A stretch of DNA of 64,000 nucleotides from Patescibacteria group bacterium (GCA_041665145.1 JBAYJK010000003.1:69177-133176); one strand, 5' to 3'. Counted from the first letter of the stretch, positions 16,298-61,362 are shown. The notes: generated by a model from the letters alone, not told the origin. Numbers and translations: made by a program.

Positions 16298-17238
16298 GCT
16301 TTTTGAATTTTAATTTTTATATTTTTAAACATATCAATTGCCATTTCGTGGAGTCCGTAGGTATGTTTCCACCCCCAGTCTTTACGCGCCTGACTATCAT
16401 CGATTTTTGTCGGCCAACTGTCCGCAATTGCCTGGTGAAAGTCGGGCTTATACTCACAGGTGAAACCCGGTACGAGTTTTTTGATCTCTGCTACAAGCTC
16501 CTCTGGTGCAAAGCTGAACGCGGCAAAATTATAGCTCGTGCGTACGGTCAAATTTCTGCTGTCTGCATTCATGAGATCTATGGTTCCTTTAATGGCATCC
16601 TCCATATACATCATGGGTAGCGAGGTTCCTTCTTTGAGGAAGCACTCAAAATGTTTGGTTTTTATGGCATCATAAAATATCTGAATGGCGTATTCTGTGG
16701 TGCCGGCTCCCGGAGCGGCTTTGTACCCCAATAAGCCAGGGTATCGCACACTTCGCACATCAACACCATATTTGAGATTGTAGTACTGACATAACAATTC
16801 TCCTGAAACCTTATTCACGCCGTACATGGTGGTCGGTTCAAGCACCGTGTGCTGCGGTGTGTTGTGCTTTGGAGTTGTCGTTCCGAACGCGGCAATGGAG
16901 CTTGGCCAAAATATCTTGAATTTACGGTCTATGGCAAGATCAAGTACATGTTTCAAACTTAAATAATTCACTTCCCACGCTAGCTGCGGATTCTTTTCAC
17001 TGCCGCCGGACAATATTCCTGCAAGATGAAAAACGGTGTCAATCTGATGATCATCGATAATTTTTGCGAGACCCTCCTTGTCTGTGACACTTCCTTTTAC
17101 GAGGATTCCGTCAAACCCCTCGTGGACTACCGAGTGACCGAGACAGATCACATTTTCCCGACCGTATTGTTTTTGGAGTGCTTCCACCAAGTCGGTACCG
17201 ACGAGGCCGAATGCTCCGGTGACAAGTATTTTTTTCAT
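16294..17238 (-). CDS. tdh: L-threonine 3-dehydrogenase, extended-SDR (epimerase-like) type
   Basis: Rossmann motif VTGAFGLVGTDL, catalytic YGVNKVSGE (YxxxK), and operon context with kbl. The start is moved to MKKILVTG because TACAAT lies 6 nt upstream. Confidence 0.7.
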   Translation of the reverse strand: MKKILVTGAFGLVGTDLVEALQKQYGRENVICLGHSVVHEGFDGILVKGSVTDKEGLAKIIDDHQIDTVFHLAGILSGGSEKNPQLAWEVNYLSLKHVLDLAIDRKFKIFWPSSIAAFGTTTPKHNTPQHTVLEPTTMYGVNKVSGELLCQYYNLKYGVDVRSVRYPGLLGYKAAPGAGTTEYAIQIFYDAIKTKHFECFLKEGTSLPMMYMEDAIKGTIDLMNADSRNLTVRTSYNFAAFSFAPEELVAEIKKLVPGFTCEYKPDFHQAIADSWPTKIDDSQARKDWGWKHTYGLHEMAIDMFKNIKIKIQKA

Positions 17239-42616: not shown

Positions 42617-42655
42617 ACTGAAATTATATCACTAGTCCGAATCCAGGTTGGTGGA
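42617..42655 (-). repeat. Family-2 repeat with promoter cassette, copy D
   Basis: The minus strand reads ccaccaaCCtGGATTCGGACTAGTGATATAATttcagtATG (deaminase start). Confidence 0.8.
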
Positions 42656-43439: not shown

Positions 43440-44417
43440 TTACTTCGTACGAAGTAGCATCAATATTAGTCCAATTGTTCTATCTCTATCTTTAGGAGTA
43501 CTTTCGGAGACAAGTATTGTTAACGCTGTTAGGGCTTCTGGAGTCAATTTTTGAGTATTTAATATATTGGTCTTTTTTAGAAACCAAACAAATACAAAAG
43601 CACCGCTTCTTTTATTTCCGTCCACAAATGGGTGACCTTTAACAATAAGATATAGAAGATTAGCTGCTTTTTCCTCTGCTGTAGGGTACAACTCTTTTCC
43701 ATTGAATGTTTGAAACACAGTTCTAACAATCCCAGTTAGTCTTCCTTCTTCTTTCTCGCGACCGAAAAGGAGACCTGCTTCTTTATCTCCAATTAACTCT
43801 TCCTTTAGATTTACAATTAACTTACTGACTTGGCTGGCTGTAAGCTCAAAAACACTTTTAATCTTACCGGATTTAGGAAGAGAGTCTTTATCGTAGGTAT
43901 CAAGAGAAAGCCATGTTGATGCAAAAGTTTTTATTAACTCAAGTGTGTTTTGTGTAGAAATCTGACTCTCTGGCAGTAACTCCTGCACTTCGTTAAGCAC
44001 CTTAAGGAAAGTGTTATAATTTTTTTCTAAAATTCTTCTGTTGAGAGTGTAACCCTTTATAATATGTTGCTTGAGTGTCTTTGTTGCCCATTGACGGAAT
44101 CTTGTAGCATTTATTGAGTTTACTCGATAACCAATAGAAAGAACAAGGTCCAAGTTATAATACTCAACTTTCCTCAAGATTTTTCTTGTTCCTTCAGTCT
44201 GAACTGTTTCCAAAACGGAAACAGTTGACTCTCTCTCAAGCTCACGAGTTGTAAAAATATTCTTAACATGTTTTGAGATAGCTCCTTTTTGTACGTTAAA
44301 AAGTTGAGCTACTTGCATCTGAGTAAGCAAAATCGTTTCATTAACAGCATCAAGCTGTACCTCTACTGCGCCGTTTTGAGCCTGATAGACCATAATTTGT
44401 TTACTTTCTTTTTCCAT
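43440..44417 (-). CDS. RhuM-like N-terminal domain fused to a Fic/Doc domain
   Basis: YYNLDLVLSIGYRVNS..RFRQWAT (RhuM pattern) and the C-terminal Fic/Doc motif GHPFVDGNKRSGAF. Confidence 0.8.
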   Translation of the reverse strand: MEKESKQIMVYQAQNGAVEVQLDAVNETILLTQMQVAQLFNVQKGAISKHVKNIFTTRELERESTVSVLETVQTEGTRKILRKVEYYNLDLVLSIGYRVNSINATRFRQWATKTLKQHIIKGYTLNRRILEKNYNTFLKVLNEVQELLPESQISTQNTLELIKTFASTWLSLDTYDKDSLPKSGKIKSVFELTASQVSKLIVNLKEELIGDKEAGLLFGREKEEGRLTGIVRTVFQTFNGKELYPTAEEKAANLLYLIVKGHPFVDGNKRSGAFVFVWFLKKTNILNTQKLTPEALTALTILVSESTPKDRDRTIGLILMLLRTK

Positions 44418-46117: not shown

Positions 46118-46181
46118 AGCTAAATTATACTAAAGTCCGAATCCTAGTTGGGTACTGTTGTTACAGGGATATACTGTAAGG
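46118..46181 (-). repeat. Family-2/3 repeat with promoter, copy H
   Basis: The plus strand reads AGTCCGAATCCtaGTTGggtactgTTGTTACAgGGaTAtactGTAAG preceded by the -10 box of the 46117 gene. Confidence 0.8.
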
Positions 46182-47513: not shown

Positions 47514-47561
47514 TTTGAGGCTAAATGGGACATTTGGTACAGTATAAAAAGAAACAACTCA

Positions 47562-47578
47562 TCTTCATAAAATCTTAA
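47562..47578 (+). promoter_or_regulatory. Direct repeat TCTTCA-N5-TCTTAA (island RR box 1)
   Basis: 11-bp phasing, 12 nt upstream of TAGTAT (47591-47596), which is 6 nt from the ATG at 47603. Confidence 0.55.
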
Positions 47579-47602
47579 TTCATGTGGTTGTAGTATTTGA
47601 CT

Positions 47603-47863
47603 ATGTTTTATAAGAAAGAGATAGTTAAACAGCTAAACCTTTCTCAGCATACTGTTACAGATGTTATCAATGAACTTCCATCCGATTACGACTGGAAATT
47701 TCTCTGTCAGAAGATTGAGCTTGCGATAGTTAAACTTAACCGAGCTTCAGAACTGCTACGAATATACCATCTCGAGGTTTGTACCCTGAATAAACAAGAT
47801 AGAACAAAAACCACTTTAGGTTCTCAGACTATCAGTGAAGTTATGAAAGCATATAAATTTTAG
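47603..47863 (+). CDS. small protein with a possible HTH (86 aa)
   Basis: KQLNLSQHTVTDVI looks HTH-like. The ATG at 47603 is preferred over the TTG at 47597. Confidence 0.45.
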   Translation: MFYKKEIVKQLNLSQHTVTDVINELPSDYDWKFLCQKIELAIVKLNRASELLRIYHLEVCTLNKQDRTKTTLGSQTISEVMKAYKF

Positions 47864-47876
47864 CAAGAAGATAAAT

Positions 47877-48371
47877 ATGAGCTCAAAAGTTATAATTACT
47901 CTTTGCGTTTTCTTCGGCGTAATGCTCGGACTTGTTTTCTTTATAACAACTGGTCAAAAGCCGGATCTGGCGTCTATTGTATATTCCGCTCAAGATACTA
48001 ATCGGCCCAAAGTTGAGGCAAATAGCGTATTCAAAAACCTTGGGGAAATCAGCGTGTCCGATGTGAAAAAGCAGGACTTTTCTTTCAAAAATACAGGCAC
48101 CAAGCCTCTTCAGATTCTCGGAATTAGTTCGAGCTGCGGCTGTACAACAGGTCAGCTAATTTACAAAGGTACAACTACAAAACCATACAGTATGCATGCC
48201 CAAAGCGGATTCATTACTAACATAGCGCCAGGTGAAAGTGCCATAGTTCGCCTCGTATACCGCCCCGCGACTATGCCTGTGTACGGTCTCGTTGAGCGCG
48301 AAGTGTATGTAACGACAAACGATCCTCTTAATCAGAAATTGGTGTTTAGCATTAAAGCAAAGGTGAGGTAA
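47877..48371 (+). CDS. DUF1573-domain protein, membrane-anchored
   Basis: N-terminal TM, FKNTGTKPLQI and SSSCGCTTG. Confidence 0.75.
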   Translation: MSSKVIITLCVFFGVMLGLVFFITTGQKPDLASIVYSAQDTNRPKVEANSVFKNLGEISVSDVKKQDFSFKNTGTKPLQILGISSSCGCTTGQLIYKGTTTKPYSMHAQSGFITNIAPGESAIVRLVYRPATMPVYGLVEREVYVTTNDPLNQKLVFSIKAKVR

Positions 48372-48373
48372 AA

Positions 48374-49201
48374 ATGGATTCAAACTTTTTATTTGGCGTC
48401 TCATTGACAGCATCATTTCTCGCGGGAGTACTGGCACTATTTGCCCCGTGTTGTATAACATTTCTGTTCCCTTCATATCTTGGAACAATCTTCAAGGACG
48501 GCAAAAAGGTTATGTATTATACGTTTATCTTTGCGTTCGGCCTGGCCTTCGTCCTAGTTCCGATAGCACTTGGAATTAGGGCTGCTATATTCTTTCTCGA
48601 CACATACCATACACAAGTTTACTATCTCGGTGCGTTGGTTATGATTCTGATGGGTTTTTTAACACTTAAACCCGTACTCCATCTACCTCAGATATTTCAT
48701 GTCTCTAGCCCCCATGGAAAAAAAATTAACACAGGAACGGTTTTTGGATTAGGTCTTATGTCTGGACTAACTTCTGCCTGTTGCGCTCCAGTACTCTTTG
48801 CCGCTGTTACACTTACATCGCTGTCCCCCTCACTTTTACAGGCTTTTATCGTCTCAGCAGCATATATTGTCGGTATCGTCATGCCTTTGTTTATCATGTC
48901 AATGTTTTACGAAAAGGCAACTTCTCGGGTAACAGGAGCAAACAGACAGAAAATTTATCGGATTTTGAAGTTTGCGGGAGCCGCTTTATTTTTTCTTGCA
49001 GGTATACTGATAGCTTTATTCAATTTTTTTGGAAAAATACAGATGAACCAGATGGAACCATACAGCCAAAAAATTAGACTTATTTTTTTTGAAATTTCGA
49101 AATACTTCCAGAATCCGATAATCGACCTGGTAGTTTTTGGGATAGTTCTGCTTGCTTTTTACAAGTTACTACGTTATAAAGGCCATGAAAAAGAAGAATA
49201 A
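48374..49201 (+). CDS. DsbD/CcdA-family (DsbD_2) membrane thiol-disulfide transporter-like protein
   Basis: 6 TM, with LFAPCC in TM1 and TSACCAPV in TM4. Confidence 0.7.
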   Translation: MDSNFLFGVSLTASFLAGVLALFAPCCITFLFPSYLGTIFKDGKKVMYYTFIFAFGLAFVLVPIALGIRAAIFFLDTYHTQVYYLGALVMILMGFLTLKPVLHLPQIFHVSSPHGKKINTGTVFGLGLMSGLTSACCAPVLFAAVTLTSLSPSLLQAFIVSAAYIVGIVMPLFIMSMFYEKATSRVTGANRQKIYRILKFAGAALFFLAGILIALFNFFGKIQMNQMEPYSQKIRLIFFEISKYFQNPIIDLVVFGIVLLAFYKLLRYKGHEKEE

Positions 49202-50123
49202 TCTTTTGCCGGTAGTTATGGTTAGTGTTACTTTTAACGCGATTTTGGCTGCCATACTCATTACTCCCCGCGTCATAAGTTTAAAATCGACCCTTTTTAA
49301 ACCACAGGTATCTCCATCGACAAAAACTGTGGTAACCACCAAAAACAACTTGTTTGATCAAATTAACCCGGTTGCGGGGTATGAAATAAATGCATTGTAT
49401 AGAGATCTTGGCCCGAAACTTATAGCTTCGGGGGCAATAGATCGAGAGAAATTTCAAAGCACATATGAAAGATCTAGCCAACCGATGACAACAGAACAGA
49501 AACAAATTTTATTTAAAGGATCGAGCAAAAGAATAAAAGTAACCAGGGAAAACTCGTACTTTCTTCTTAATTTTTTCTGGGCTGTAGGGCTTGCCAATAA
49601 ATCTAAAATTCTCGACGAAGGAGATATGGTGAAATATGGCGGTAAAAGTGGTGCGGGCAATTTTGCCTCTACCGGAGGGTGGAGTTTGGCAAAAAGTGAG
49701 GCAATGAATTACTATTCAAAGTCGGAACTTATTTCGTTGACTGCAGAACAAGAAGCTCTCGTCGCTCTGGTAGCATCAAATATTTTCAGGCCTTGTTGTG
49801 ACAACTCAACGGCATTCCCGGACTGCAACCATGGGATGGCTTTATTGGGAGTCCTGCAACTTATGGCAGCAAACGGTGCAACTGAAAAAGACATGTATGA
49901 AGCGTCGAAATACTTCAACGCTTTTTGGTTCCCGGGAAACTATTATGATCTTGCATTATATTTTCAAAACAAGGAGGGAAAATCATTTAAAGATGTAGAT
50001 GCAAAGATCTTATTAAGTAAAGATTTCTCATCTGCAACTGCATCTCAAAATATTAAGCAATGGCTTGCTAATAAAGGATTAGTCCAGCAACCACCGAAAC
50101 AAGGTGGCGGATGCGGAGTATAA
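49185..50123 (+). CDS. membrane-anchored hypothetical protein with a PCCDNSTAFPDCNHG motif and a C-terminal GGGCGV
   Basis: 313 aa with an N-terminal TM. The start is at MKKKNN (49185), overlapping the previous gene by 17 nt. Confidence 0.6.
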   Translation: MKKKNNLLPVVMVSVTFNAILAAILITPRVISLKSTLFKPQVSPSTKTVVTTKNNLFDQINPVAGYEINALYRDLGPKLIASGAIDREKFQSTYERSSQPMTTEQKQILFKGSSKRIKVTRENSYFLLNFFWAVGLANKSKILDEGDMVKYGGKSGAGNFASTGGWSLAKSEAMNYYSKSELISLTAEQEALVALVASNIFRPCCDNSTAFPDCNHGMALLGVLQLMAANGATEKDMYEASKYFNAFWFPGNYYDLALYFQNKEGKSFKDVDAKILLSKDFSSATASQNIKQWLANKGLVQQPPKQGGGCGV

Positions 50124-50130
50124 TGCTCTT

Positions 50131-50799
50131 ATGAGGATTCTGATCGTCGAGGATGAACAAAGACTTTCTAATATTGTTCGAAAAGGATTCATTGAGGATG
50201 GTTTTGCTGTAGACCAAGCATTCGACGGTGAAGAGGGACAATACCTTGCTGAAAGTGAAGAGTATGATCTTATTGTGTTGGATATTGCATTACCTAAAGT
50301 CGATGGACTAACTCTCTGTAAAGAACTTCGTAATAAACAAATAAGAACCCCCGTTCTAATTTTAACCGCAAAGTCGAAAACGGAAGATAAAATAGCAGGG
50401 CTTGACTCAGGAGCTGACGACTATATGACAAAACCATTTTCTTTTGCTGAATTTCGCTCCCGTGTACACGCTCTTATCAGAAGAAGCCATCAAAATTCAT
50501 CCCCTGTTTTGGAAATTGAAGGTCTGGAGGTTGATCCATTGAAGCATATTGTGAAGAGAGACAGCAGGACAATAAGTTTGACTCCAAAGGAGTTTGCAAT
50601 TTTAGAGCTATTGATGAGGCATAAGGGTGAAGTGGTAAGCAGAACTATGATTACAGAGCATGTCTGGGATTATAATTTCGAGGGAATGAGTAACGTTGTT
50701 GATGTTTTCGTTACCACATTACGAAAGAAAATTAATCGGGGGTCAAAACACAAGCTCATACAAACGATTCATGGAGTCGGTTATAAGGTTGGAAGCTAA
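50131..50799 (+). CDS. OmpR-family response regulator (CopR/CusR-like by context)
   Basis: MRILIVEDE, LDIALPKVDG, TAK, HGVGYK. TATAAT 50119-50124 lies 6 nt upstream of the ATG. Confidence 0.9.
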   Translation: MRILIVEDEQRLSNIVRKGFIEDGFAVDQAFDGEEGQYLAESEEYDLIVLDIALPKVDGLTLCKELRNKQIRTPVLILTAKSKTEDKIAGLDSGADDYMTKPFSFAEFRSRVHALIRRSHQNSSPVLEIEGLEVDPLKHIVKRDSRTISLTPKEFAILELLMRHKGEVVSRTMITEHVWDYNFEGMSNVVDVFVTTLRKKINRGSKHKLIQTIHGVGYKVGS

Positions 50800-50800
50800 T

Positions 50801-52204
50801 ATGAATACCAAAAGCATACGATTCCGCATAATCTTCTGGTTCAGTCTGGCAATGTTTCTTGCGGCTGCATTTATTTTTTCCAGTTTTTATCTGGTAACAA
50901 CAAGGATACTTTTCAAACAAGTAGATAGCGAACTTTTGACACACGCGACTAAGTTATCACAGATCGTGACACGACAGGGTGTTAGTCTGCATGAGGTATT
51001 ATTGCAACAACAATTATTCACCGAATTCAGCAATATTCCGGGTATGGTTGTAGCCTTACTGGATGAAAATGGTATTGCTGTTAGCAGCTCGCTAAGTATG
51101 GATAGGCCATACGTTTCATATAACTATCTTTTCCAGCTAGCTCGGGGTTCCGCAAAACCAGTCTACTTAAACCAGGAAATTAGCAATGTACCTATGAGAT
51201 TCATTGCCCAGCCAATCAGAAGCGGATCGGATCTTGTAGGTATTGTACTCGTTGCACACCCTATTGATGCTATCCAGAAGTCTCTCAATACTCTTCTTAC
51301 GACCCTCGCGATACTGCTGGGGCTGCTCGTAATTCCAACGGTTCTCGGCGGATTAGTCCTCGCCGGAAAAATCATGCAACCCATATCTCATATAACCAAT
51401 AAAATTGACAAGATAAGTTCCGAACATCTTGAAGAGAGGGTGGATACATCCCGAACAGGGGATGAAATGGAAAAGCTTGGGGTTACCTTTAACAGTCTTC
51501 TAGATCGTCTTCAGGATTCGTTTCAACGGGAACGACAGTTCATCGGTGATGTTGCACATGAATTGAAGACCCCGGTTGCAACTCTTAAGAGCGGAATTGA
51601 ACTCGCGCTTTTAAAAAACAGGACAAACGATGAATACAGACAATTCTTCAAGGAAACTCTTATTGATGTCAATAGATTATCTACAACAATCAAAAATATT
51701 CTTGATCTTGCTTGGCTCGGGGCGGAGAGCTCACAAATTTCTGAGAACAGTTTTAATTTGTCGGTAACGCTTACCGAATTAAGCGAGATTGCAACAAAAC
51801 TAGCAGCTCAAAAACGTATAAGCATAAGAAACAATATTAGGCAAAATATATTTGTTATTGGAGTAGAAGACAAAATAACCAGAGCAATACTCAACATTAT
51901 TGATAACGCGATCAAATACACTCCAGTGGATAAAACTGTCAGTATTACTTTGCACAAAAGAGGCGGTAGCGCTATCCTTGAAATAACTGATACCGGTATC
52001 GGTATTTCGGAAAAAGAGATAGATCATATCTTCGAACGTTTTTATCGTGGCGCAAAAACTGCAAAAACATTAGGCTCAGGTCTCGGACTTGCCATTGCGC
52101 AGGGTATTATAAAAGCCCATCGCGGTGAAATTGATGTGACTAGTAAAGTCGGCAAAGGAACCACAGTTTCTATTACCTTGCCTATCAAAGGCATTCTATC
52201 ATAA
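50801..52204 (+). CDS. sensor histidine kinase (CopS/CusS-like by context)
   Basis: Two TM segments flanking a periplasmic-type domain, HAMP, H-box AHELKTPV, DNAIKYT, DTGIGI and GSGLGLAI. Confidence 0.9.
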   Translation: MNTKSIRFRIIFWFSLAMFLAAAFIFSSFYLVTTRILFKQVDSELLTHATKLSQIVTRQGVSLHEVLLQQQLFTEFSNIPGMVVALLDENGIAVSSSLSMDRPYVSYNYLFQLARGSAKPVYLNQEISNVPMRFIAQPIRSGSDLVGIVLVAHPIDAIQKSLNTLLTTLAILLGLLVIPTVLGGLVLAGKIMQPISHITNKIDKISSEHLEERVDTSRTGDEMEKLGVTFNSLLDRLQDSFQRERQFIGDVAHELKTPVATLKSGIELALLKNRTNDEYRQFFKETLIDVNRLSTTIKNILDLAWLGAESSQISENSFNLSVTLTELSEIATKLAAQKRISIRNNIRQNIFVIGVEDKITRAILNIIDNAIKYTPVDKTVSITLHKRGGSAILEITDTGIGISEKEIDHIFERFYRGAKTAKTLGSGLGLAIAQGIIKAHRGEIDVTSKVGKGTTVSITLPIKGILS

Positions 52205-52207
52205 CCA

Positions 52208-52224
52208 TCTTCACACTTTCCTAA
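52208..52224 (+). promoter_or_regulatory. Direct repeat TCTTCA-N5-TCCTAA (island RR box 3)
   Basis: Same phasing as box 1, 12 nt upstream of TATAGT (52237-52242). Confidence 0.5.
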
Positions 52225-52274
52225 TGCTACTCATTATATAGTTCAAATATATATAGCAATTTAATATAATCAAT

Positions 52275-52481
52275 ATGGAGTACCATGAAGCACCAACGTA
52301 CAACAGCAAAACGAGTGCAGTAATAACGTGGTTCCTTGTTTGTCTGTGTGCAGTTGTTGTTGTGGTTGTGGCGGTTACGGTGTTTAAGGTTAAGCTAAAT
52401 AGCTTGTTGTATGTAGGAATTCTTTTACTATGTCCGCTCATACATTTTGTGATGATGAAAAGCGGCAGCCATAAGCATTAA
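52275..52481 (+). CDS. DUF2933-like small membrane protein
   Basis: 68 aa with the C-terminal LLLCPLIHFVMMKSGSHKH pattern seen next to copper ATPases. Confidence 0.5.
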   Translation: MEYHEAPTYNSKTSAVITWFLVCLCAVVVVVVAVTVFKVKLNSLLYVGILLLCPLIHFVMMKSGSHKH

Positions 52482-52521
52482 CTACGACAAAAAATAAACA
52501 CAAAAGTGTTACGATAAAAGC

Positions 52522-54663
52522 ATGAAAATGAATCATGAAACGATGACTCACGATATGCATGATATGCACAGTCAACATGATATGCATTCAATGAAACCTA
52601 TGTCTGAATTGTCCTTCTGGGAAAAGCTAAAGATGAGTATGGCGATGAGTATGGGTATGGAACACACAGGTCTAGCCGGACGTGAGATGGCCAAACTTAT
52701 GGAACTAGACATAAGAAATAAGTTTTTCTTTTCTTTGTTTCTAACACTACCCATTCTTCTCTACTCCATGGGAAATATGATTTTCAAGTTGAATTTACCG
52801 TCCCCTCTTCCCATTCCCTGGCTTCTGTTTGTACTAACAACCCCCGTCTTTTTTTACGGAGGTTGGTTGTTTCTGTATTCCTCATTTCTTGAATTGCGTA
52901 AACGGCAACTTGGTATGTCCGTTCTGATAGCAATTGGTATTACGGCTGCATATGGGTTCAGCGTTGTGTTGACACTAACCGGAAGCGCTGATTCGTACTA
53001 TGAAGCAGCGGCAATGTTGATTACATTTGTACTTTTTGGGCATTGGATGGAAATGAAATCCAGGCGTGGAACCACTGACGCGCTTCAGGCTTTGTTTAAC
53101 CTCGTTCCTCCTCAGGCACGACTCTGGAAAAACAACGTGGAAACGATAGTATCTACTTCTGAAATCAAACTTGGGGATATCCTTGTACTTAAACCTGGAG
53201 ATAAGGTACCTGTTGATGGTGAAATTATTGAGGGAGAAACGGCAATTGATGAGTCGCTTGTTACGGGTGAATCAATCCCAGTTTTAAAGAAAATGGCCGA
53301 TACCGTGATTGGTGGTTCTATCAACACGTCCGGTTCAGTAAAATTTAAGGCTACTAAAGTCGGAAATGATACGGCGCTTGCGCAAATTGTTAAAATGGTC
53401 GAGACCGCCCAAAACTCTAAGGCTCCCGGACAGAAATTGGCTGATACATTTGCAAAATATCTGGTTATTATTGCCGTAGGAGGTGGGTTATTGACATTCT
53501 TTACCTGGTTTTTTGTTTTAGGTCAACCGCTGGTTGTCGCATTGACATTTGCTATTTCCACCATCGTCATCGCGTGCCCAGATGCACTTGGTTTGGCAAC
53601 ACCTACCGCTGTAGCGGTTGGGACTGGTCTTGGTGCAAAGCACAATATCCTTATAAAGGATGCTCCCACACTTGAACAGGTGTCCAAGATTCAGACAGTT
53701 GTTCTCGATAAGACGGGAACGCTTACCGAGGGAAAGCCAAAAGTTACTGATACAGTAGCTGCCTCAGGTTTTTCTCAAAGCGAAGTTCTCAGACTGACCG
53801 CAGCTGCCGAAACGAAGTCTGGTCACCCTCTCAGCAAGGCTATTCTTGAAGAAGTACATAGACTTACATTAAGCATACCTTCGAATATCGACAAATTTAA
53901 TTCCTTATCAGGTCTTGGGGTTGAGGCGTTTGTCGAAAATAGACATGTACTCGTCGGGACTATAAAACTTATGACCGATCGTAAGGTTGATATTTCTCCG
54001 CTTCAGAAAGATATCGACCGATTATTAGTAGAAGGCAAGACACTCATGATTCTAGCAATAGATAGTAAAATTGCGGGTGTGGTAGCTGCTGCTGACACGG
54101 TTAAACCTACTGCAAAAGACGCCATTACCGCAATGAGGCAATTAGGATTGGAGGTGGCTATGATTACTGGAGACAACAGACAAACAGCTGAGGCTGTTGG
54201 TACATTATTGGGCATTGACAGAATATTTTCCGAGGTACTACCGGCAGATAAAGAAACATACGTTAAAAAGCTTCAGGATGAGGGCAGATTCGTAGCAATG
54301 GTTGGTGATGGTGTCAATGATGCTCCGGCGCTTGCACGGGCAGATATAGGCATTGCCATAGGGGCAGGCACAGATGTTGCTATCGAGACAGCCAAGGTTG
54401 TTCTCATGAAATCGGATCCCGGAGATATTCTTCGTGCTATAAAATTATCAAAAGCAACAGTACGTAAAATGAAGGAAAATCTGGTGTGGGCAAGCATTTA
54501 CAACGTTTTAGCGATTCCTATAGCTGCTGGAGTTCTCTATCCGACTTTTGGTATTACGTTACGACCGGAGTTTTCAGCCCTTCTCATGTCAGCCTCTTCA
54601 ATTATTGTAGCAGTTAATGCTGTGTTGCTCAGAAGATCAGAAAAGGATCTAGTAACACTATAA
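52522..54663 (+). CDS. P1B-type heavy-metal ATPase with a His/Met-rich N-terminus and a CPD TM4 motif
   Basis: N-terminal MNHETMTHDMHDMHSQHDMHSM, TGES, IACPDALGLATP, DKTGTLT, GDGVNDAPAL, and TM6 MSASS. Confidence 0.9.
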   Translation: MKMNHETMTHDMHDMHSQHDMHSMKPMSELSFWEKLKMSMAMSMGMEHTGLAGREMAKLMELDIRNKFFFSLFLTLPILLYSMGNMIFKLNLPSPLPIPWLLFVLTTPVFFYGGWLFLYSSFLELRKRQLGMSVLIAIGITAAYGFSVVLTLTGSADSYYEAAAMLITFVLFGHWMEMKSRRGTTDALQALFNLVPPQARLWKNNVETIVSTSEIKLGDILVLKPGDKVPVDGEIIEGETAIDESLVTGESIPVLKKMADTVIGGSINTSGSVKFKATKVGNDTALAQIVKMVETAQNSKAPGQKLADTFAKYLVIIAVGGGLLTFFTWFFVLGQPLVVALTFAISTIVIACPDALGLATPTAVAVGTGLGAKHNILIKDAPTLEQVSKIQTVVLDKTGTLTEGKPKVTDTVAASGFSQSEVLRLTAAAETKSGHPLSKAILEEVHRLTLSIPSNIDKFNSLSGLGVEAFVENRHVLVGTIKLMTDRKVDISPLQKDIDRLLVEGKTLMILAIDSKIAGVVAAADTVKPTAKDAITAMRQLGLEVAMITGDNRQTAEAVGTLLGIDRIFSEVLPADKETYVKKLQDEGRFVAMVGDGVNDAPALARADIGIAIGAGTDVAIETAKVVLMKSDPGDILRAIKLSKATVRKMKENLVWASIYNVLAIPIAAGVLYPTFGITLRPEFSALLMSASSIIVAVNAVLLRRSEKDLVTL

Positions 54664-54689
54664 TTGCTGTCTTCAACGAAACTCTGAAA

Positions 54690-54706
54690 TCTTCATAAAA
54701 TCTTAA
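54690..54706 (+). promoter_or_regulatory. Direct repeat TCTTCA-N5-TCTTAA (island RR box 2)
   Basis: The 17-mer is identical to box 1. It lies 12 nt upstream of TATGCT (54719-54724), which is 7 nt from the ATG at 54732. An extra TCTTCA at 54669-54674 is 21 nt upstream. Confidence 0.55.
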
Positions 54707-54731
54707 CTGCCTGTCTTGTATGCTGTATTTT

Positions 54732-56579
54732 ATGAAAAAATGTAACATCAATATCAAAGGCATGCACTGCCGATCATGTGAATTGTTAATAGAAGACGAA
54801 TTACAAAAGGTACCCGGTATTGAACGGGTTTCAGTAAGCCACCAAACTGGGGTTGCCGAGTTATTCTACCGACACGGATTTAATGAACAGGCAGTTGCAC
54901 ATGCGATACAGAATGCCGGATACAGTATTGGGGTGAATGAAAAACCTCATATTTTTTCTCGGAACCACTGGGATTATGTTGATGTAGGAATTGCTTTCTT
55001 CATGGTAATGACCGTGTTTCTCCTTGCAAAAACATTCGGATTATTCAATTTGGGAAGTTCAATTTCGGGAAGCTACTCAAGCTTACCCATTGTGTTCATT
55101 GTCGGTCTCACCGCGGGAGTATCAACATGTATGGCAATGGTGGGCGGGTTGGTGCTCGGCGCTGCTGCTCGGTTTTCCGCGCAAAATCCAAATGCCAGCG
55201 CTCTCGAGAAATTCAAACCACATCTATTTTTTAATCTTGGAAGAATCACGTCATACACAGTTTTGGGAGGTGTGGTAGGTTTTGCTGGATCTCTGTTTCA
55301 GCTTTCTACTTCAGTTCTGGGAATTTTGACTGTTACAGTGGGGCTTGTCATGTTGCTTCTCGGAGGCCAACTTATCGAGATATTCCCTGTTTTAAAGCGA
55401 ATATCGTTTACTTTACCCAAAGGGATTTCTCGTATACTTGGTATTAAGGAGCAGACTCAGTCTGAATACAGTGACAAAGGTGCTGCAATTATGGGGGCTT
55501 CGACTTTTTTTCTACCCTGTGGTTTCACTCAGGCAATGCAACTATTTGCCATGAGTACCGGCAGTCCCGTAACAGGCGCGTTAACCATGGGTGTTTTCGC
55601 ACTTGGTACGGCGCCTGGATTGCTCAGTGTTGGTGGTCTTACATCCGTAATTAAAGGTGAGGCTGCGAAGATGTTTTTCAAGGTTGCTGGTGTTGTAGTT
55701 GTTCTGCTCGCCCTATTTAATATTTCAAATGGCCTTAACTTACTCGGGATTGGCCCGAACGTTCTTGGAGCTTTCAATACAAAGGCTGCAACGAATACAA
55801 CAGCTACTGATTCAAATGTCACCATCGCTAATGGGGTTCAGGAAGTTCGGATGACGCAAGATTCTTCCGGTTACACGCCTAATAGCTTTACTATCAAAAA
55901 AGGTACTCCAGTGAAATGGATTGTTACTTCAACTGATGTTAATACCTGTGCAAGTAGCATTGTGTCACAGCAGTTAGGTGTGCGCCAAGCACTGCAGTTA
56001 GGTGAGAACATCATAAATTTTACTCCAACAGAAACCGGTACAATCCGCTTTTCATGCATGATGGGAATGTATAATGGATCGTTTAATGTAGTTGATGAGA
56101 CTGAGACGTCGGCTGTTCCTTCTGTACTTGCCGCAGATGCAACGCCAGCGGGGGTGAGTGCGTTACCACTGCCAAGCACTACGACCACCAATGCAAAGTC
56201 ATCATGTGGCGGTTCTGGTGGAGGTGGTTGTGGATGCGGCTCAAAGCGTGCAGTGCCTACTCCAAACCCTAGCCAACCTATCGCAGAAGCCGTTGTTGAG
56301 AATAATGTACAGGTAATTAAGGCCACGTACACAAGTCTCGGCGATATCTCGCCCAACTTTTTTATCGTTAAAGCAAATCAACCGGTACGTTTCGAAGTTG
56401 ACGCGCAGGATAACGGCGAAGGTTGTATGGGCAGCATCACAGTTCCCAACCTGACAAATAAGGTGGATATTCTCACCAAAGGACAAAAGACGATTTTTGA
56501 ATTTACACCCAGTACTCCGGGTAACTACAATATCACTTGCGGGATGGGAATTCCGAGAGGCCAAATACAAGTTATTTAG
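54732..56579 (+). CDS. HMA domain + TauE/SafE-like membrane domain + two cupredoxin-like domains
   Basis: N-terminal GMHCRSCE, 6-8 TM (FFLPCGFTQAMQLFA), a Cys/Gly linker SSCGGSGGGGCGCGS, and two beta domains ending FSCMMGMYNG and ITCGMGIPRG. Confidence 0.75.
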   Translation: MKKCNINIKGMHCRSCELLIEDELQKVPGIERVSVSHQTGVAELFYRHGFNEQAVAHAIQNAGYSIGVNEKPHIFSRNHWDYVDVGIAFFMVMTVFLLAKTFGLFNLGSSISGSYSSLPIVFIVGLTAGVSTCMAMVGGLVLGAAARFSAQNPNASALEKFKPHLFFNLGRITSYTVLGGVVGFAGSLFQLSTSVLGILTVTVGLVMLLLGGQLIEIFPVLKRISFTLPKGISRILGIKEQTQSEYSDKGAAIMGASTFFLPCGFTQAMQLFAMSTGSPVTGALTMGVFALGTAPGLLSVGGLTSVIKGEAAKMFFKVAGVVVVLLALFNISNGLNLLGIGPNVLGAFNTKAATNTTATDSNVTIANGVQEVRMTQDSSGYTPNSFTIKKGTPVKWIVTSTDVNTCASSIVSQQLGVRQALQLGENIINFTPTETGTIRFSCMMGMYNGSFNVVDETETSAVPSVLAADATPAGVSALPLPSTTTTNAKSSCGGSGGGGCGCGSKRAVPTPNPSQPIAEAVVENNVQVIKATYTSLGDISPNFFIVKANQPVRFEVDAQDNGEGCMGSITVPNLTNKVDILTKGQKTIFEFTPSTPGNYNITCGMGIPRGQIQVI

Positions 56580-56593
56580 TTATTAACAAAACT

Positions 56594-56797
56594 ATGCAAT
56601 CAATGAAACTAACCGGACTTACTTGCAACGCTTGCAAGAAAGTCTCAGAAAAAAGGATCGGAGCAATAAGCGGAGTTCAAAAAGTTGATGTTTCCGTTGA
56701 ATTGGGTGTAGCAGTCATAGATTCCGATAGGCTACTATCAGTATTAGAAGTTAACAAAGTGCTTCAAGACACACCTTATAAAGCACTCGAGAAATAG
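56594..56797 (+). CDS. small HMA-like metallochaperone (CopZ-like)
   Basis: 67 aa with [12 protein letters not shown]. The start is taken at MQSMKL. Confidence 0.65.
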
Positions 56798-56798
56798 T

Positions 56799-59700
56799 AT
56801 GAATAGAATAATTGATCTTAAAATTGAAGGAATGCATTGTCAGTCGTGCGAAATGTTAATCAAAGATGAGCTGTCTTCCCTTTCGGGTGTCAAAGACGTT
56901 AGTACTGACTATAAAACTGGCCGCGGAACAGTCACTTTAACCAATCGGGTTACTTCAGACGCGGCAATTCTTGACTCTGTAAAAAATGCAGGGTATGTGG
57001 CTTCTGTAATTACTTCCAATCATCTGAGTAACAACGTATCACAATTGCCACAAGAAAAGGGAACATTTGCTTTTTTGAATTTCCCAAAGGAAATAGGTCT
57101 TGAAGGAACAATCGGCAAGAATGCAGAAGGACAGGTGACCATTAAAGGTAAGTTACGATTTAATTCTAACGAAAGCGATGAACCTCACCAACTCGCTCAG
57201 CCGAATAACGTTGTCGAAAATAATACTTTTGCTGGTAAAACGGAACGAACTAGTTTGGTCATTATAGGAATGCATTGTTCCTCTTGTGCCGCAATTATTG
57301 AGAGACAGTTAAAAAAGGTGACTGGTGTATCAGAAGCAAAAGTTAATTTCGCTTCTGAAAAAGCATCTGTAGTTTACAATTCGGGCGTAACAAAGACAGA
57401 AGATTTAATAAAAGCAGTTGAAAAATCTGGATACAAAGCTGCTCCCGCTCATACTGAAGACTCACAAGCTCAAGCAAAACGCCAAACATCAGAAATAAAG
57501 CATCAATGGAACAGATTCATTATCAGCATGGTGTTGTCGTCCCCAATGATTTATTTCATGTTTCTTGATTTCTTTAATTTTCTACCGGGAACCAAGCTCA
57601 TACTTCCCTACATTGGAATCATATCGTTTGTATTAGCAACACCCGTACAATTCATCATTGGCTCCAACTTTTACAAAGGAATGATTTCCGCCTTAAAGAT
57701 GCGTACGTTTAACATGGATAGTTTAATAGCTATAGGGACATCCGTTGCCTATTTCTATAGCGCTGCTAACTTTATCCAATACTTTATAACCAACAATTCC
57801 TTAATTGGCCTTGCAGGAGCCAAAATTCCAGATTTGTACTTTGAAACTGCAGCATTCCTTATTACGTTTGTTATTCTAGGAAAATTCCTTGAAGCAAAAG
57901 CCAAAGGAAGGACATCTGAAGCGATTAAGAAACTCATGGGTTTGCAGGCAAAAACAGCACGAGTTATACGAAACGGAGAGACAGTTGATATTCCTGTTGA
58001 CCAGGTTATCAAAAACGATATTATCATGGTTCGACCCGGAGAAAAAGTCCCCGTAGATGGAACGATTACGAAAGGCTCCTCTTCTATCGACGAATCAATG
58101 ATAACCGGTGAGAGTCTTCCTGTTGAAAAACATGTTGAGGACACAGTTATCGGCGGCACAATAAATAAAGTCGGTAGCTTTGAGTTTATGGCAACACGAG
58201 TGGGGTCTGAAACTACGCTCGCCCAAATTATCCGCCTCGTTGAAGACGCACAGGGTTCTAAGGCACCCATTCAAGCTGTTGCCGATAAGATTTCTGCATA
58301 CTTTGTTCCGGGTGTAATAGCACTTGCCGTTTTGACATTTGTTGTCTGGTTTTTCTTTTTAGGGTCAACGCTTTCTTTCGCTCTAATGGCATTTACGGCA
58401 GTTATTGTTATTGCCTGTCCTTGTGCTCTGGGCCTTGCCACCCCGACAGCCATAATGGTTGGAACGGGAGTTGGGGCTGAACATGGCATCTTAATCAAAG
58501 GTGGCGAACCATTGGAAAGTGCAAGTAAAATAAATACGATTGTTTTCGACAAAACAGGAACTATCACAAAAGGAAAGCCCGAAGTAACTGATGTTGAAGA
58601 TGTTGGTTCGCTTGACGATAAAGAAGTGCTTGCTATTTCTGCAAGTCTTGAAAAGCAATCCGAACACCCCCTTGCTGAAGCAATATATTCTTACTCTCAA
58701 GAGGAAGGTGTGACTCTTAAAGAAGTTGAGAAGTTTAGTGCAATTCCAGGCCATGGCGTCAAAGGGACTATTGGAAACAAAGATTACTTTTTCGGAAATC
58801 GCAAGCTTATTACCGAAACGCTTGGTTTGGATATCGGTAAGTTTGAACGGAAGCTCGTACGACTCGAAGAACAGGGAAAAACAGCAATGATCCTATCTTC
58901 AAAAGACGAAGTGCTTGGACTGATTGCTGTTGCTGATACGATAAAAACCACTTCGAGAGAAGCTATTGAAAAACTCAAGAAGATGAAGATTGAAGTATGG
59001 ATGATCACAGGGGACAATACCCGTACGGCTAAGGCAATTGCTGCACAAGTCGGTATTGACAATGTCCTCGCCGAAGTCTTGCCTCAAGATAAGGCCAACG
59101 AAGTAAAAAAACTTCAGGAACAAGGTAAAAAAGTAGCGATGGTAGGAGACGGTATTAATGACGCACCGGCACTTGCACAAGCTGAACTTGGAATTGCAAT
59201 GGGTTCGGGAACTGATGTTGCCATGGAAGCCGGAGGAATCGTCATCATTAAGAATGATCTCAGAGATGTAGTTAATGCACTCGATCTTTCCAAGAGCGCC
59301 GTGCAAAAAATACAACAAAACATGTTCTTTGCTTTGTTCTATAACGTTATCGGCATTCCAATCGCTGCGCGTGTATTTATGTTCGCGGGCCTTGTGTTAA
59401 AGCCGGAACTTGCTGGTCTTGCGATGGCACTTAGTTCAGTTTCTGTAGTAAGCAACTCACTGCTTCTTCGGCGCTACCGTCCGGGAAAAAAGAACTATAT
59501 ATCTATGTTTGCACCGATTGTTATGATGATCGCTTTTACGTTACTGTTTATCGAATTTGCACGGTTTAGTTCCACTATGGCTGCACCAAAGAAGATGGAT
59601 TCGAAAGTAACCAATTCTCGTGCAGTTAGTAATGTGGTAGAAATAAGCGCTCCCACTGGAGTTAAAAAACAGTTCTATATGGTAGGAAACAGTATTCCTA

Positions 59701-59948
59701 CAGAGTTATCAGGTCAGATACAAATGGAGGCATTCAATCCGGTATATATTGCAGGAAAGAAGTATAGTCCGATTTTTATAGGGTATGACGAGGCTCAGGT
59801 TATGATTGAGGAAAAACTATTTTCTAAACCGGGTGATACTATTAAGAACTTTTTTGGTAATGACATTATTGTCTCAGGCGTCTTAGTAAAGACTAATTCA
59901 GTTTTTGATACGTATCATTTTGTCAAGGAAGGGTTCCAATTAAGGTGA
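56799..59948 (+). CDS. copA: Cu+-type P1B ATPase with two N-terminal HMA domains and a ~150 aa C-terminal extension
   Basis: GMHCQSCE and [57 protein letters not shown], then an extra TM plus a soluble domain (59499-59945). Confidence 0.9.
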
Positions 59949-59978
59949 ATGAAATAAGTCTGCTATGAGGCCGATGTG

Positions 59979-60049
59979 CTGGGGGACGTGGATTCGGACC
60001 ACGATAAACAGCTCCAAAGGCTGCTGTCCTACCATTAGACGATCCCCCA
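59979..60049 (-). tRNA. tRNA-Gln (anticodon UUG), no encoded CCA
   Basis: The manual cloverleaf is TGGGGGA/TCCCCCA acceptor stem, GTCT/GGAC D stem, GCAGC-CTTTGGA-GCTGT anticodon arm, and CGTGG-TCCGAAT-CCACG T arm, with discriminator G. The 5' TGGGG.ATCG start resembles the bacterial tRNA-Gln I remember. Confidence 0.85.
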
Positions 60050-60672: not shown

Positions 60673-61251
60673 TCACTTAAGTAAATTTAACTGCTTTCTT
60701 CTAATAATTAATAAAGTACTTTCAATAATATTGATTAATAAATTTGTTACCGGGTAAAGCCATGTGAGTAGGGAGTAATTTGCCAAAGCCAAAAGCCCCA
60801 AAAAGTTACGTACCGCACCCATCTTCCACGTAAAGAGTGTCTCGGAATGTGGATCTTTCCATGACTTTCGGATGGTGGGCAAGTTCGCAAGGGTGTTTAT
60901 GGTAACGATCAAAACGGTTGAGATAACCGGTTCTTTCGCGAAAATCCACACGCATGTTGCTATGAGTGCGATAATGAAAGTTATCGTATCAAACTTAGTT
61001 ATGTCTTTTTCTCCATTCTTGAGGCCTAAAATGTAAATGGTCAAGCAAAGAATAGCTGTGGCGAGGGTTGTATAGGCACCTGCACCACCTTTTCCTAAAA
61101 TCTGAAGCGCAAAAATGATAAAAGTTACAAATGCCCAGATAAACCAACTGTATATATGGGGTTTAGTTTTGCCTTTTACAGTATCCCAGATGTACGGAGC
61201 ATACCCAATGAAGGTTAAGATTACTGCTAGAGCCCCTAATACGTCTTTCAT
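60673..61251 (-). CDS. hypothetical 6-TM membrane protein
   Basis: 192 aa and hydrophobic. TATAAT lies 6 nt upstream of the ATG at 61251. Confidence 0.6.
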   Translation of the reverse strand: MKDVLGALAVILTFIGYAPYIWDTVKGKTKPHIYSWFIWAFVTFIIFALQILGKGGAGAYTTLATAILCLTIYILGLKNGEKDITKFDTITFIIALIATCVWIFAKEPVISTVLIVTINTLANLPTIRKSWKDPHSETLFTWKMGAVRNFLGLLALANYSLLTWLYPVTNLLINIIESTLLIIRRKQLNLLK

Positions 61252-61300: not shown

Positions 61301-61362
61301 CTTACTCGATACCCATGTAACAAGAACACAACCAGGATTCGGACTAGTGATATAATTTTATA
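61301..61362 (+). repeat. Family-2/3 repeat with promoter cassette, copy L (inverted relative to D and H)
   Basis: CTTACtcgaTAcCCaTGTAACAAgaacacaaCCaGGATTCGGACTAGTGATATAATtttataATG. 29 of 30 nt are identical to copy D across aaattatatcactagtccgaatccNggttg. Confidence 0.85.

Follow-up and report, generated by a model that had tools for sequence, protein, structure and literature searches.

The stretch analysed here (the window) is a piece of 64,000 nucleotides (nt) from the genome of a Patescibacteria group bacterium (GCA_041665145.1, JBAYJK010000003.1:69177-133176), and it harbors a metal-related gene island that ends at a tRNA-Gln gene. Each of the three apparent transcription units of this island is preceded by an element of 20 base pairs (bp), hereafter the box, which is made of two 9-bp direct repeats and stands at a fixed distance from a -10-like hexamer. 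Judging from sequence comparisons, these boxes are probably the operator of a response regulator of the OmpR/PhoB family encoded in the same island (50131-50799).

Organization of the island and its boxes

The boxes and the hexamers that follow them are located in the window as follows, together with a box-less hexamer upstream of the regulator gene:

47559..47578, + strand: box 1, TCATCTTCA-TA-AAATCTTAA, two 9-bp direct repeats with a period of 11 bp; its 17-mer TCTTCATAAAATCTTAA occupies 47562-47578
47591..47596, + strand: -10-like hexamer TAGTAT of promoter 1, 12 nt past box 1 and 6 nt before the ATG at 47603
50119..50124, + strand: box-less TATAAT, 6 nt from the ATG at 50131, predicted to serve the regulator-kinase pair as a basal leaderless promoter
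52205..52224, + strand: box 2, CCATCTTCA-CA-CTTTCCTAA, a weaker variant; its 17-mer TCTTCACACTTTCCTAA occupies 52208-52224
52237..52242, + strand: -10-like hexamer TATAGT of promoter 2, 12 nt past box 2, the ATG at 52275 being preceded by a 32-nt leader
54687..54706, + strand: box 3, AAATCTTCA-TA-AAATCTTAA; its 17-mer TCTTCATAAAATCTTAA occupies 54690-54706
54719..54724, + strand: -10-like hexamer TATGCT of promoter 3, 12 nt past box 3 and 7 nt before the ATG at 54732

The gene layout was drawn from Pfam, NCBIfam, the public gene calls for the same DNA (L174) and direct reading, with protein lengths given in amino acids (aa):

47603..47863, + strand: divergent CsoR/RcnR-family metal-sensor-like protein, 86 aa, first gene of unit 1 (profile and Pfam)
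47877-48371, + strand: DUF1573 protein (Pfam)
48374-49201, + strand: CcdA/DsbD-like membrane protein, 275 aa (several sources name CcdA)
49185-50123, + strand: Cys-rich protein, 312 aa (gene calls and sequence)
50131..50799, + strand: OmpR/PhoB-family response regulator, 222 aa (Pfam Response_reg and Trans_reg_C)
50801..52204, + strand: sensor histidine kinase, 467 aa, with two transmembrane segments, an extracytoplasmic domain of about 135 aa, HAMP, HisKA and HATPase
52275-52481, + strand: DUF2933-like small membrane protein, 68 aa (DUF2933 is detected in its orthologues)
52522-54663, + strand: P1B-type ATPase, 713 aa, with a CPD motif and a His/Met-rich N-terminus (Pfam/NCBIfam and direct reading)
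54732-56579, + strand: HMA-DsbD_2-cupredoxin membrane protein, first gene of unit 3
56603-56797, + strand: CopZ-like HMA protein, unit 3
56799-59948, + strand: CopA-like P1B-1 ATPase with a CPC motif, unit 3
59978-60049, - strand: tRNA-Gln, where the island ends

The tRNA-Gln was the only match in an Rfam scan of the window. The first-pass annotation had reported the 17-mer as identical in boxes 1 and 3 and variant in box 2, each copy ending 12 nt before a -10-like hexamer, and both the coordinates and the distances were confirmed, all on the + strand. Boxes 1 and 3 have the half-sites TCTTCA-N5-TCTTAA; in box 2, which starts 1 nt past the stop codon of the kinase gene, they are TCTTCA-N5-TCCTAA. 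An additional TCTTCA had been placed 21 nt upstream of box 2, where it is absent; the extra copy is located at 54670-75, 20 nt upstream of box 3, and it was rejected as a third half-site, being out of the 11-bp phase and unconserved in orthologous promoters. Over 19 independent sites the consensus is (A/T)nATCTT(C/A)A-TA-AA(A/T)TCTT(A/C)A, that is, two 9-bp direct repeats with an 11-bp period, and the box together with its -10 can be written as TCTTMANNNNNTCTTMA-N11/12-TANNNT.

Boxes 1 and 3 are far above chance. TCTTCA-N5-TCTTAA with at most one mismatch occurs at exactly three sites in the 64 kilobases (kb), which are boxes 1-3, against 0.65 in shuffles (2 of 100 shuffles reach three), and the full 17-mer with at most three mismatches has four matches in the window against 0.47 expected, a number that no shuffle reached. 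Relaxing the pattern to two mismatches gave 39 matches in the window against 32.6 expected, which is noise. A 20-bp scoring matrix built from sites of other loci only, with 100 simulated windows as the control, scored box 1 at 31.0 bits and box 3 at 30.4 bits, the simulated windows having a mean maximum of 11.8 and a highest value of 21. Additionally, a box with a -10 at the correct distance occurs in the window only at boxes 1-3. Further candidate boxes at 61087, 6184, 11109(-), 17667(-), 31362 and 61641 were rejected, as they show chance-level scores and none of the -10/ATG geometry.

Conservation of the box in related loci

Three sets of loci were compared. The first consists of 160 loci retrieved through the regulator from genome and metagenome collections, mostly with regulators of at most 53% identity, plus L012 (67%), L081 (74%) and L113 (65%); the second (L161-L173) was retrieved through exact regulator orthologues, and the third (L179-L183) through the CcdA-like gene, independently of the regulator. 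Boxes were scanned for in the window (64 kb) and in roughly 0.3 Mb of related loci.

At orthologous promoters (L012, L113, L161, L163, L166, L168 and L170-L173) the 20-mer is 75-100% identical, with only the box-2 orthologue of L161 at 55%, whereas the 45 nt upstream of the boxes are 16-44% identical, which is the chance level (about 25%), and the 12-nt spacer between box and -10 is 17-67% identical. The -10 keeps TAnnnT at all of these promoters except, again, the box-2 orthologue of L161. Taken separately, box 1 is 80-100% identical to its orthologous boxes, with flanks at 16-38% and a TAnnnT at the promoter-1 position in every orthologous promoter. Box 3 is 75-100% identical to its orthologues, and its hexamer is found as TATGCT, TATTCT or TATTAT at the same place in L170, L163, L166 and L173, 6-7 nt from the ATG. 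Box 2 is 80% identical to the box that occupies the same position in L170, L171 and L172 (TAATCTTCATACTTTCTTAA).

These comparisons bear on the idea that the identical 17-mers are remnants of a promoter cassette duplicated or recombined on a mobile island, with no regulatory role and with box 2 as a chance match. Such an origin would agree with the identity of boxes 1 and 3 over 17 nt, with the recombinase, relaxase and TrwB genes that adjoin related islands, and with the lack of statistical significance of box 2 when it is taken alone. However, within the window the identity between boxes 1 and 3 ends at the box edges, and across loci the boxes have stayed 75-100% identical while their flanks have drifted to random; the order of the half-sites can be swapped at regulator promoters with the spacing kept, which argues for selection on the half-sites themselves, and box 2 has positional orthologues with better boxes. 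An inert cassette is thus extremely improbable, and the box is almost certainly a functional cis-element.

The distribution of the box follows that of the regulator. A box with at most two mismatches and a TAnnnT at +12 was found 40 times in 262 kb of loci whose regulators are at least 65% identical, with at least one such site in 16 of the 16 loci, compared with 4 times in 2052 kb from 157 loci with regulators of at most 53% identity; in the distant loci of similarly AT-rich composition (low guanine-cytosine, GC) there were 3 in 485 kb. This corresponds to an enrichment per kb of about 80-fold in close-orthologue loci over the loci of distant OmpR-type regulators. Similarly, when the 250 nt upstream of the regulator gene are considered, 9 of 17 close loci and 1 of 158 distant ones have a paired CTT(C/A)A core there. 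Almost all sites with no or one mismatch in the close loci lie on the coding strand, ahead of an ATG, at orthologous metal genes, and the loci reached through the CcdA-like gene (L179-L183) again contain the regulator, at 67-73% identity, with boxes. The box is a conserved direct repeat that keeps a fixed distance to the -10 at the promoters of metal genes, and it is restricted to loci encoding this regulator clade.

Promoter geometry in an apparently leaderless context

The promoters of the island are best read against the general habit of this genome, which looks overwhelmingly leaderless. Among the 66 non-overlapping open reading frames of the window, 34 have a TAnnnT (mostly TATAAT) that ends 5-8 nt, usually 6, before the first ATG (background 7.6%), and a Shine-Dalgarno (SD)-like tetramer was found at only three (background 9.3%). 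Examples of the arrangement -10, 6 nt, ATG are the following:

12611, 30858, 41252, 44608 and 61363, + strand: -10, 6 nt, ATG
2254, 4747, 27129, 40674 and 46117, - strand: -10, 6 nt, ATG

The same tendency was observed, by a crude test, in related loci of the candidate phyla radiation (CPR) and not in control loci of other phyla; a literature search found nothing specific on leaderless mRNAs in CPR bacteria. Because -10, 6 nt and ATG is the genome-wide habit, units 1 and 3 are predicted to be made as leaderless mRNAs.

Between box and TAnnnT there are 12 nt in all three boxes of the window and 11-12 nt in about 40 sites of the relatives. At many sites the box ends 24-25 nt before the ATG, most steadily at the promoters of the first gene (CsoR-like/DUF1573) and of the regulator, and the usual layout there, shared by boxes 1 and 3, is the box, 12 nt, the hexamer, 6-7 nt and the ATG. 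With transcription starts assigned by the genome-wide rule, which would put +1 at the A of the start codon, the 17-mer would extend from -41 to -25. The first-pass annotation had proposed that the box stands where a -35 element would be, in the manner of PhoB/OmpR-type activation, and the 12-nt gap to the -10 and the predicted span, the same as that of PhoB at pstS, are in favor of this; the hexamer at -35 spacing, 17 bp upstream of the -10, would be TAAAAT. The -10 hexamers of the box promoters (TAGTAT, TATGCT and TATAGT) are weaker than the housekeeping ones, as expected if these promoters depend on an activator.

The constant distance from box to -10 in every case might also be explained if the box were recognized upstream by an alternative sigma factor, or by the RNA polymerase as a -35/UP-like element peculiar to the lineage, all the more so since the promoter rules of Patescibacteria have not been characterised experimentally. 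However, the ordinary promoters of the window aligned on their -10 (32 leaderless ones) yield TGnTATAAT, with no -35 signal and nothing box-like upstream. Furthermore, in the window and the related loci the box appears only at metal-related genes, its internal two-fold direct repeat is unexpected for a sigma -35, and no sigma-factor gene was seen in the islands. This explanation is therefore highly improbable compared with an operator bound by the island regulator.

No convincing terminators were found between the units (10 found against 11.2 expected), and transcription may read through from one unit to the next. The TATAAT at 50119, which had been described as a constitutive-looking promoter of the regulator and kinase genes, holds as such, and relatives that share this gene order have retained it. 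Upstream of the CPD ATPase gene, TACGAT at 52510-15 may be another box-less -10 of the leaderless type.

The island regulator and its putative regulon

The regulator matches Pfam Response_reg and Trans_reg_C (E about 5e-28 each), and its closest solved structures are DrrD, PrrA, PhoP, MtrA and BasR. It is 100% identical to a protein from a Patescibacteria metagenome-assembled genome (MAG), and more than 120 relatives, which bear the names Woesebacteria, Roizmanbacteria, Shapirobacteria or Microgenomates, are 77-84% identical to it. The window is therefore of CPR, Microgenomates-like origin. It shares 44% identity with CusR and 35% with BasR of Escherichia coli. Among NCBIfam models, the heavy-metal families TIGR01387 and TIGR01386 rank top for the regulator and the kinase respectively and are aligned over their full length, whereas the regulator scores 196 bits against PmrA (NF007928; cut-off 330) and 195 bits against PhoB (cut-off 296). 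By the NCBIfam cut-offs, then, it is not an orthologue of PmrA, PhoB or CusR.

Over 11 non-redundant loci, the boxed promoters include those of the CsoR-like/DUF1573-CcdA operon, of the regulator-kinase operon, of the DUF2933 gene that follows the kinase, of HMA-DsbD_2-cupredoxin, and of ICMT-bPH_2, a cupredoxin gene and a YHS-ATPase. In most relatives a box with swapped half-sites (TCTTAAtgattTCTTCA) precedes the regulator gene, 11 nt from a TATAAT that is itself 6 nt from the ATG, an arrangement that would represent classic autoregulation. The window does not carry this autoregulatory box; as in L179-L181, the regulator gene directly follows a gene of about 310 aa and has a box-less -10 located 5-6 nt before its ATG. 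The relatives with an intergenic gap before the regulator gene carry the box there instead.

The gene content points to copper: the island encodes two copper-type P1B ATPases, HMA/CopZ proteins, a cupredoxin and the CsoR-like protein, to which relatives add multicopper oxidase, YtkA, DUF305 and YHS proteins. The boxes had been said to precede three units with named genes, and their placement and most of the gene labels stand; the first gene, which had been labelled only as helix-turn-helix, is instead a divergent member of the CsoR/RcnR family. A profile of six orthologues of this 86-aa protein matches Mycobacterium tuberculosis CsoR 2HH7 (E 2.9e-6) and 4M1P (E 1.1e-5), PF02583 is detected in four of the six, and of the H-x3-C pair, which this protein keeps, the Cys never varies among them and the His is found in five of the six. 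The first ligand is displaced by about one helical turn (Cys35 here, His in most orthologues). The island may therefore have two sensors, the kinase, which would sense outside the cytoplasm, and a cytoplasmic Cu(I) sensor whose own gene is controlled by a box.

The presence of this gene raises the question of whether the box is a real conserved promoter element but a repressor operator, recognized by the CsoR-like protein or by the ArsR/SmtB-type protein of the relatives. The first gene of unit 1 belongs to the CsoR/RcnR family, ArsR-type genes occur in several related islands, and several regulators are often combined in metal islands. On the other hand, CsoR and ArsR bind inverted repeats, and a canonical CsoR palindrome (ATATCCCCCCGTACGGGATATAT) is found in L181 at an operon that has no box; the head-to-tail repeat with its 11-bp period, its -35 position and its weak -10 fits an activator. 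Moreover, L173, L163 and L168 are boxed and have no CsoR-like first gene, L173 having no ArsR gene either, and in most relatives the box stands ahead of the response-regulator gene. In L173 the boxes are at the regulator and HMA-DsbD_2 promoters, the kinase is kept, and within 10 kb of the regulator there is no DUF1573/CcdA-like operon, CsoR-like gene or ArsR gene. A repressor operator of this kind is accordingly very unlikely, and binding by the island's OmpR-type regulator is preferred.

The palindrome of L181 is located at 16660-16690, and is also found in L182 and L183, upstream of a separate csoR-cupredoxin-ATPase operon. Two independent copper regulons would then lie side by side in the same island (L181).

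Comparison with known response regulator operators

An OmpR/PhoB-type regulator acting in place of the -35 is a textbook mechanism, and the box can be compared with three groups of operators.

The first group is represented by the Corynebacterium glutamicum CopR site (TGAAGATTTgaTGAAGATTT / TGAAGATTTnnTGAAGATTT), defined by electrophoretic mobility shift assays and mutagenesis as a perfect 9-bp direct repeat with a 2-bp linker (TGAAGATTT-nn-TGAAGATTT), in which half-site mutations abolish binding and linker mutations do not (PMC3140484). Of the 18 specified positions of its reverse complement, AAATCTTCAnnAAATCTTCA, one is different in box 3 and three are in box 1; a scan of the 64 kb for this reverse-complement motif, with at most three mismatches allowed, retrieved these two boxes and no other site, against 0.23 expected. 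Like the island, C. glutamicum CopR-CopS is a copper-responsive OmpR-type two-component system encoded beside copper-resistance genes; unlike the boxes fixed 12 nt from a -10, its site is single and is found between divergent genes, 59-78 bp ahead of the start codon of copR (PMC3140484). The targets also differ, being a multicopper oxidase and CopB in C. glutamicum and CcdA/DUF1573, HMA-DsbD_2-cupredoxin and CopA here. The likeness to C. glutamicum CopR (Cg3285) is drawn at the level of the operator motif, and no such box was seen in actinobacterial loci whose regulators are 39-44% identical. The Synechocystis CopR site is described as two direct repeats.

The second group comprises PhoB and PmrA. 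The PhoB site at pstS spans -41 to -25 and the pmra-box likewise replaces the -35, with the form XTTAAY-N5-XTTAAY, or CTTAAT/CCTAAG in Klebsiella pneumoniae (PMC10570014). The box shares with these sites two hexamers 5 nt apart, with an 11-bp period, that are read along transcription and replace the -35, which upholds the earlier statement that the 11-bp hexamer spacing is typical of the OmpR family: direct half-sites of 11-bp period are found here, and the PhoB and PmrA boxes are alike in this. Written in the frame of the pmra-box, the box reads CTTCAT-N5-CTTAAT, with CCTAA in box 2, a resemblance that is a functional analogy only. The island regulator also keeps Asn188 and Val192, two residues of PmrA that contact TAA. 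The systems differ in signal and regulon, in the leaderless mRNAs predicted here and in the ordinary promoters, which here have no -35.

The third group is that of the proteobacterial copper regulators. CusR, CopR, PcoR and LciR resemble the island system in that TIGR01387/TIGR01386 are its best families and in the mobile copper island with a dedicated two-component system. However, the copper box ATTACAAnnTTGTAAT, which was established for LciR and also serves CusR (PMC6989116), consists of a 7-bp inverted repeat, whereas the island box is a direct repeat with another half-site; with three mismatches the copper box has 9 matches in the window against 7.1 expected, none of them at an island promoter. 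A Legionella-like LciRS island had been suspected from a match to a "Gammaproteobacteria" MAG and from the NCBIfam LciS model, and it was ruled out by the Patescibacteria-identical regulator and by the absence of an inverted-repeat box. Taken together, these comparisons indicate that heavy-metal response regulators use at least two unrelated operators, the inverted-repeat copper box of proteobacteria and a direct-repeat AAATCTT(C/A)A box like that of C. glutamicum CopR.

Strength of the assignment and proposed mechanism

Several observations weigh against assigning the boxes to a copper-responsive regulator of the island. The best NCBIfam models are both matched below their cut-offs, TIGR01387 for the regulator at 258.2 bits (cut-off 279.2) and TIGR01386 for the kinase at 239.8 bits (cut-off 292.55), and the sensor domain of the kinase (about 135 aa) matches by sequence no solved structure, those of CusS type included. 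The recognition-helix residues Asn188 and Val192 are uninformative on specificity, because they are common to BasR, CusR and the island regulator. The co-occurrence of regulator and box arises partly by construction, since the loci were retrieved through the regulator or the linked CcdA-like gene; a search of IMG/VR that started from the box returned one chance-like hit, on a phage-like contig with no metal genes, and the scan covered 64 kb of a genome of about 0.9 Mb. Box 2, at 14.7 bits, is at chance level by score alone, and its support is positional, in that relatives have an orthologous box immediately behind the stop codon of the kinase gene. Its promoter has a 32-nt leader with no ribosome-binding site, where relatives carry AGGAGG, and a competing sigma-70-like TTCAAA-17-TATAAT is present at 52242-52270, just downstream of the box. 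Promoter 2 is the least certain of the three.

The assignment to the island's OmpR-type regulator, as the first-pass annotation had proposed, is supported by the conservation of the promoters, the enrichment with the regulator clade and the coherence of the metal regulon. The island regulator very likely binds the box, and copper is a likely inducer, if with somewhat less confidence.

The following mechanism can be proposed. The membrane kinase (50801-52204) would sense excess copper, and possibly silver, outside the cytoplasm and phosphorylate the regulator, a dimer of which would bind the two half-sites head-to-tail and recruit or stabilise the RNA polymerase, taking the part of a -35 in the manner of PhoB and PmrA. 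Unit 1 would thus be switched on, comprising the CsoR-like, DUF1573, CcdA-like and Cys-rich genes with read-through into the regulator and kinase genes, along with unit 2 (the DUF2933-like protein and the CPD-motif P1B ATPase) and unit 3 (the HMA-DsbD_2-cupredoxin, CopZ-like and CopA-like proteins). The regulator-kinase pair would have in this island only basal expression of its own, from the box-less TATAAT, whereas most relatives would also autoregulate it through the box.

Additional features of the window and of related islands

The same box and leaderless geometry are found in L012 (CAZIVL010000001.1, labelled uncultured Gammaproteobacteria) and L081 (Ga0075719_106), whose regulators are 67-74% identical to that of the island. 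The kinases of these two loci are short (332-335 aa), with HAMP from residue 55 and little room for a sensor domain, a scantness of sensor region before HAMP that resembles LciS (PMC6989116). Two regulators of this type are encoded in L012, and in L081 a box stands over a sortase gene. These features suggest horizontal spread or mis-binning, together with sensor-domain swapping.

In some relatives the copper island adjoins genes for a serine recombinase, a TrwB/DUF87-type ATPase and Replic_Relax (L161 1-5700 and L170 1-5100), which indicate a mobile element. Upstream of the island in the window there is a RhuM-Fic gene at 43440-44417.

In the CPD ATPase, CPD replaces the usual CPC, CPH or SPC; its N-terminus begins MKMNHETMTHDMHDMHSQHDMHSM and carries no HMA domain, and its relatives have PF19335 (HMBD) at the N-terminal end. 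As for start codons, the public gene call begins the HMA-DsbD_2 gene at 54720, inside the predicted -10, where orthologues favor 54732, and it begins the CopA gene at 56832, inside the first GMHCxxC motif, where orthologues and domain boundaries favor 56799. Start-codon calls are unreliable in this leaderless genome.

Another repeated element, the exact 22-mer GGATTCGGACTAGTGATATAAT, occurs twice in the window, at 42623-42644 (-) and 61335-61356 (+), against 0 expected, and variants of it are present at two further leaderless promoters, near 46124 (-) and 60100 (+). The genes behind these promoters, of unknown function, encode a 158-aa protein, a 101-aa protein upstream of a DUF2975 gene, an alpha/beta hydrolase and GrpB. 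The 22-mer may mark another small regulon or be a copied promoter cassette.

Significance for the Patescibacteria

To our knowledge, the regulatory networks of the Patescibacteria (CPR) are almost unknown, and most members are uncultivated. The mechanism proposed for the box is an ordinary one; the interest of the system lies in the CPR lineage, in an operator unlike the proteobacterial copper box and in promoters that are apparently leaderless and devoid of -35 and SD sequences. The regulon would be compact, with one two-component system, a 20-bp operator, three promoters in this island and at least five promoter classes across relatives, and it could be rebuilt in a heterologous host or in vitro. 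It is about as likely as not that box and regulator together make up a portable module for the copper response, one confined to Patescibacteria and a few further low-GC lineages, that combines a direct-repeat operator like that of actinobacterial CopR with the promoters of a -35-less, SD-less and mostly leaderless genome. In that case all recognition of the promoter's upstream part would fall to the regulator, acting at a constant 24-25 nt from the start codon. The module would then be the first sequence-defined transcription-factor regulon in the CPR, and it would provide a handle on transcription and leaderless translation in uncultivated bacteria.

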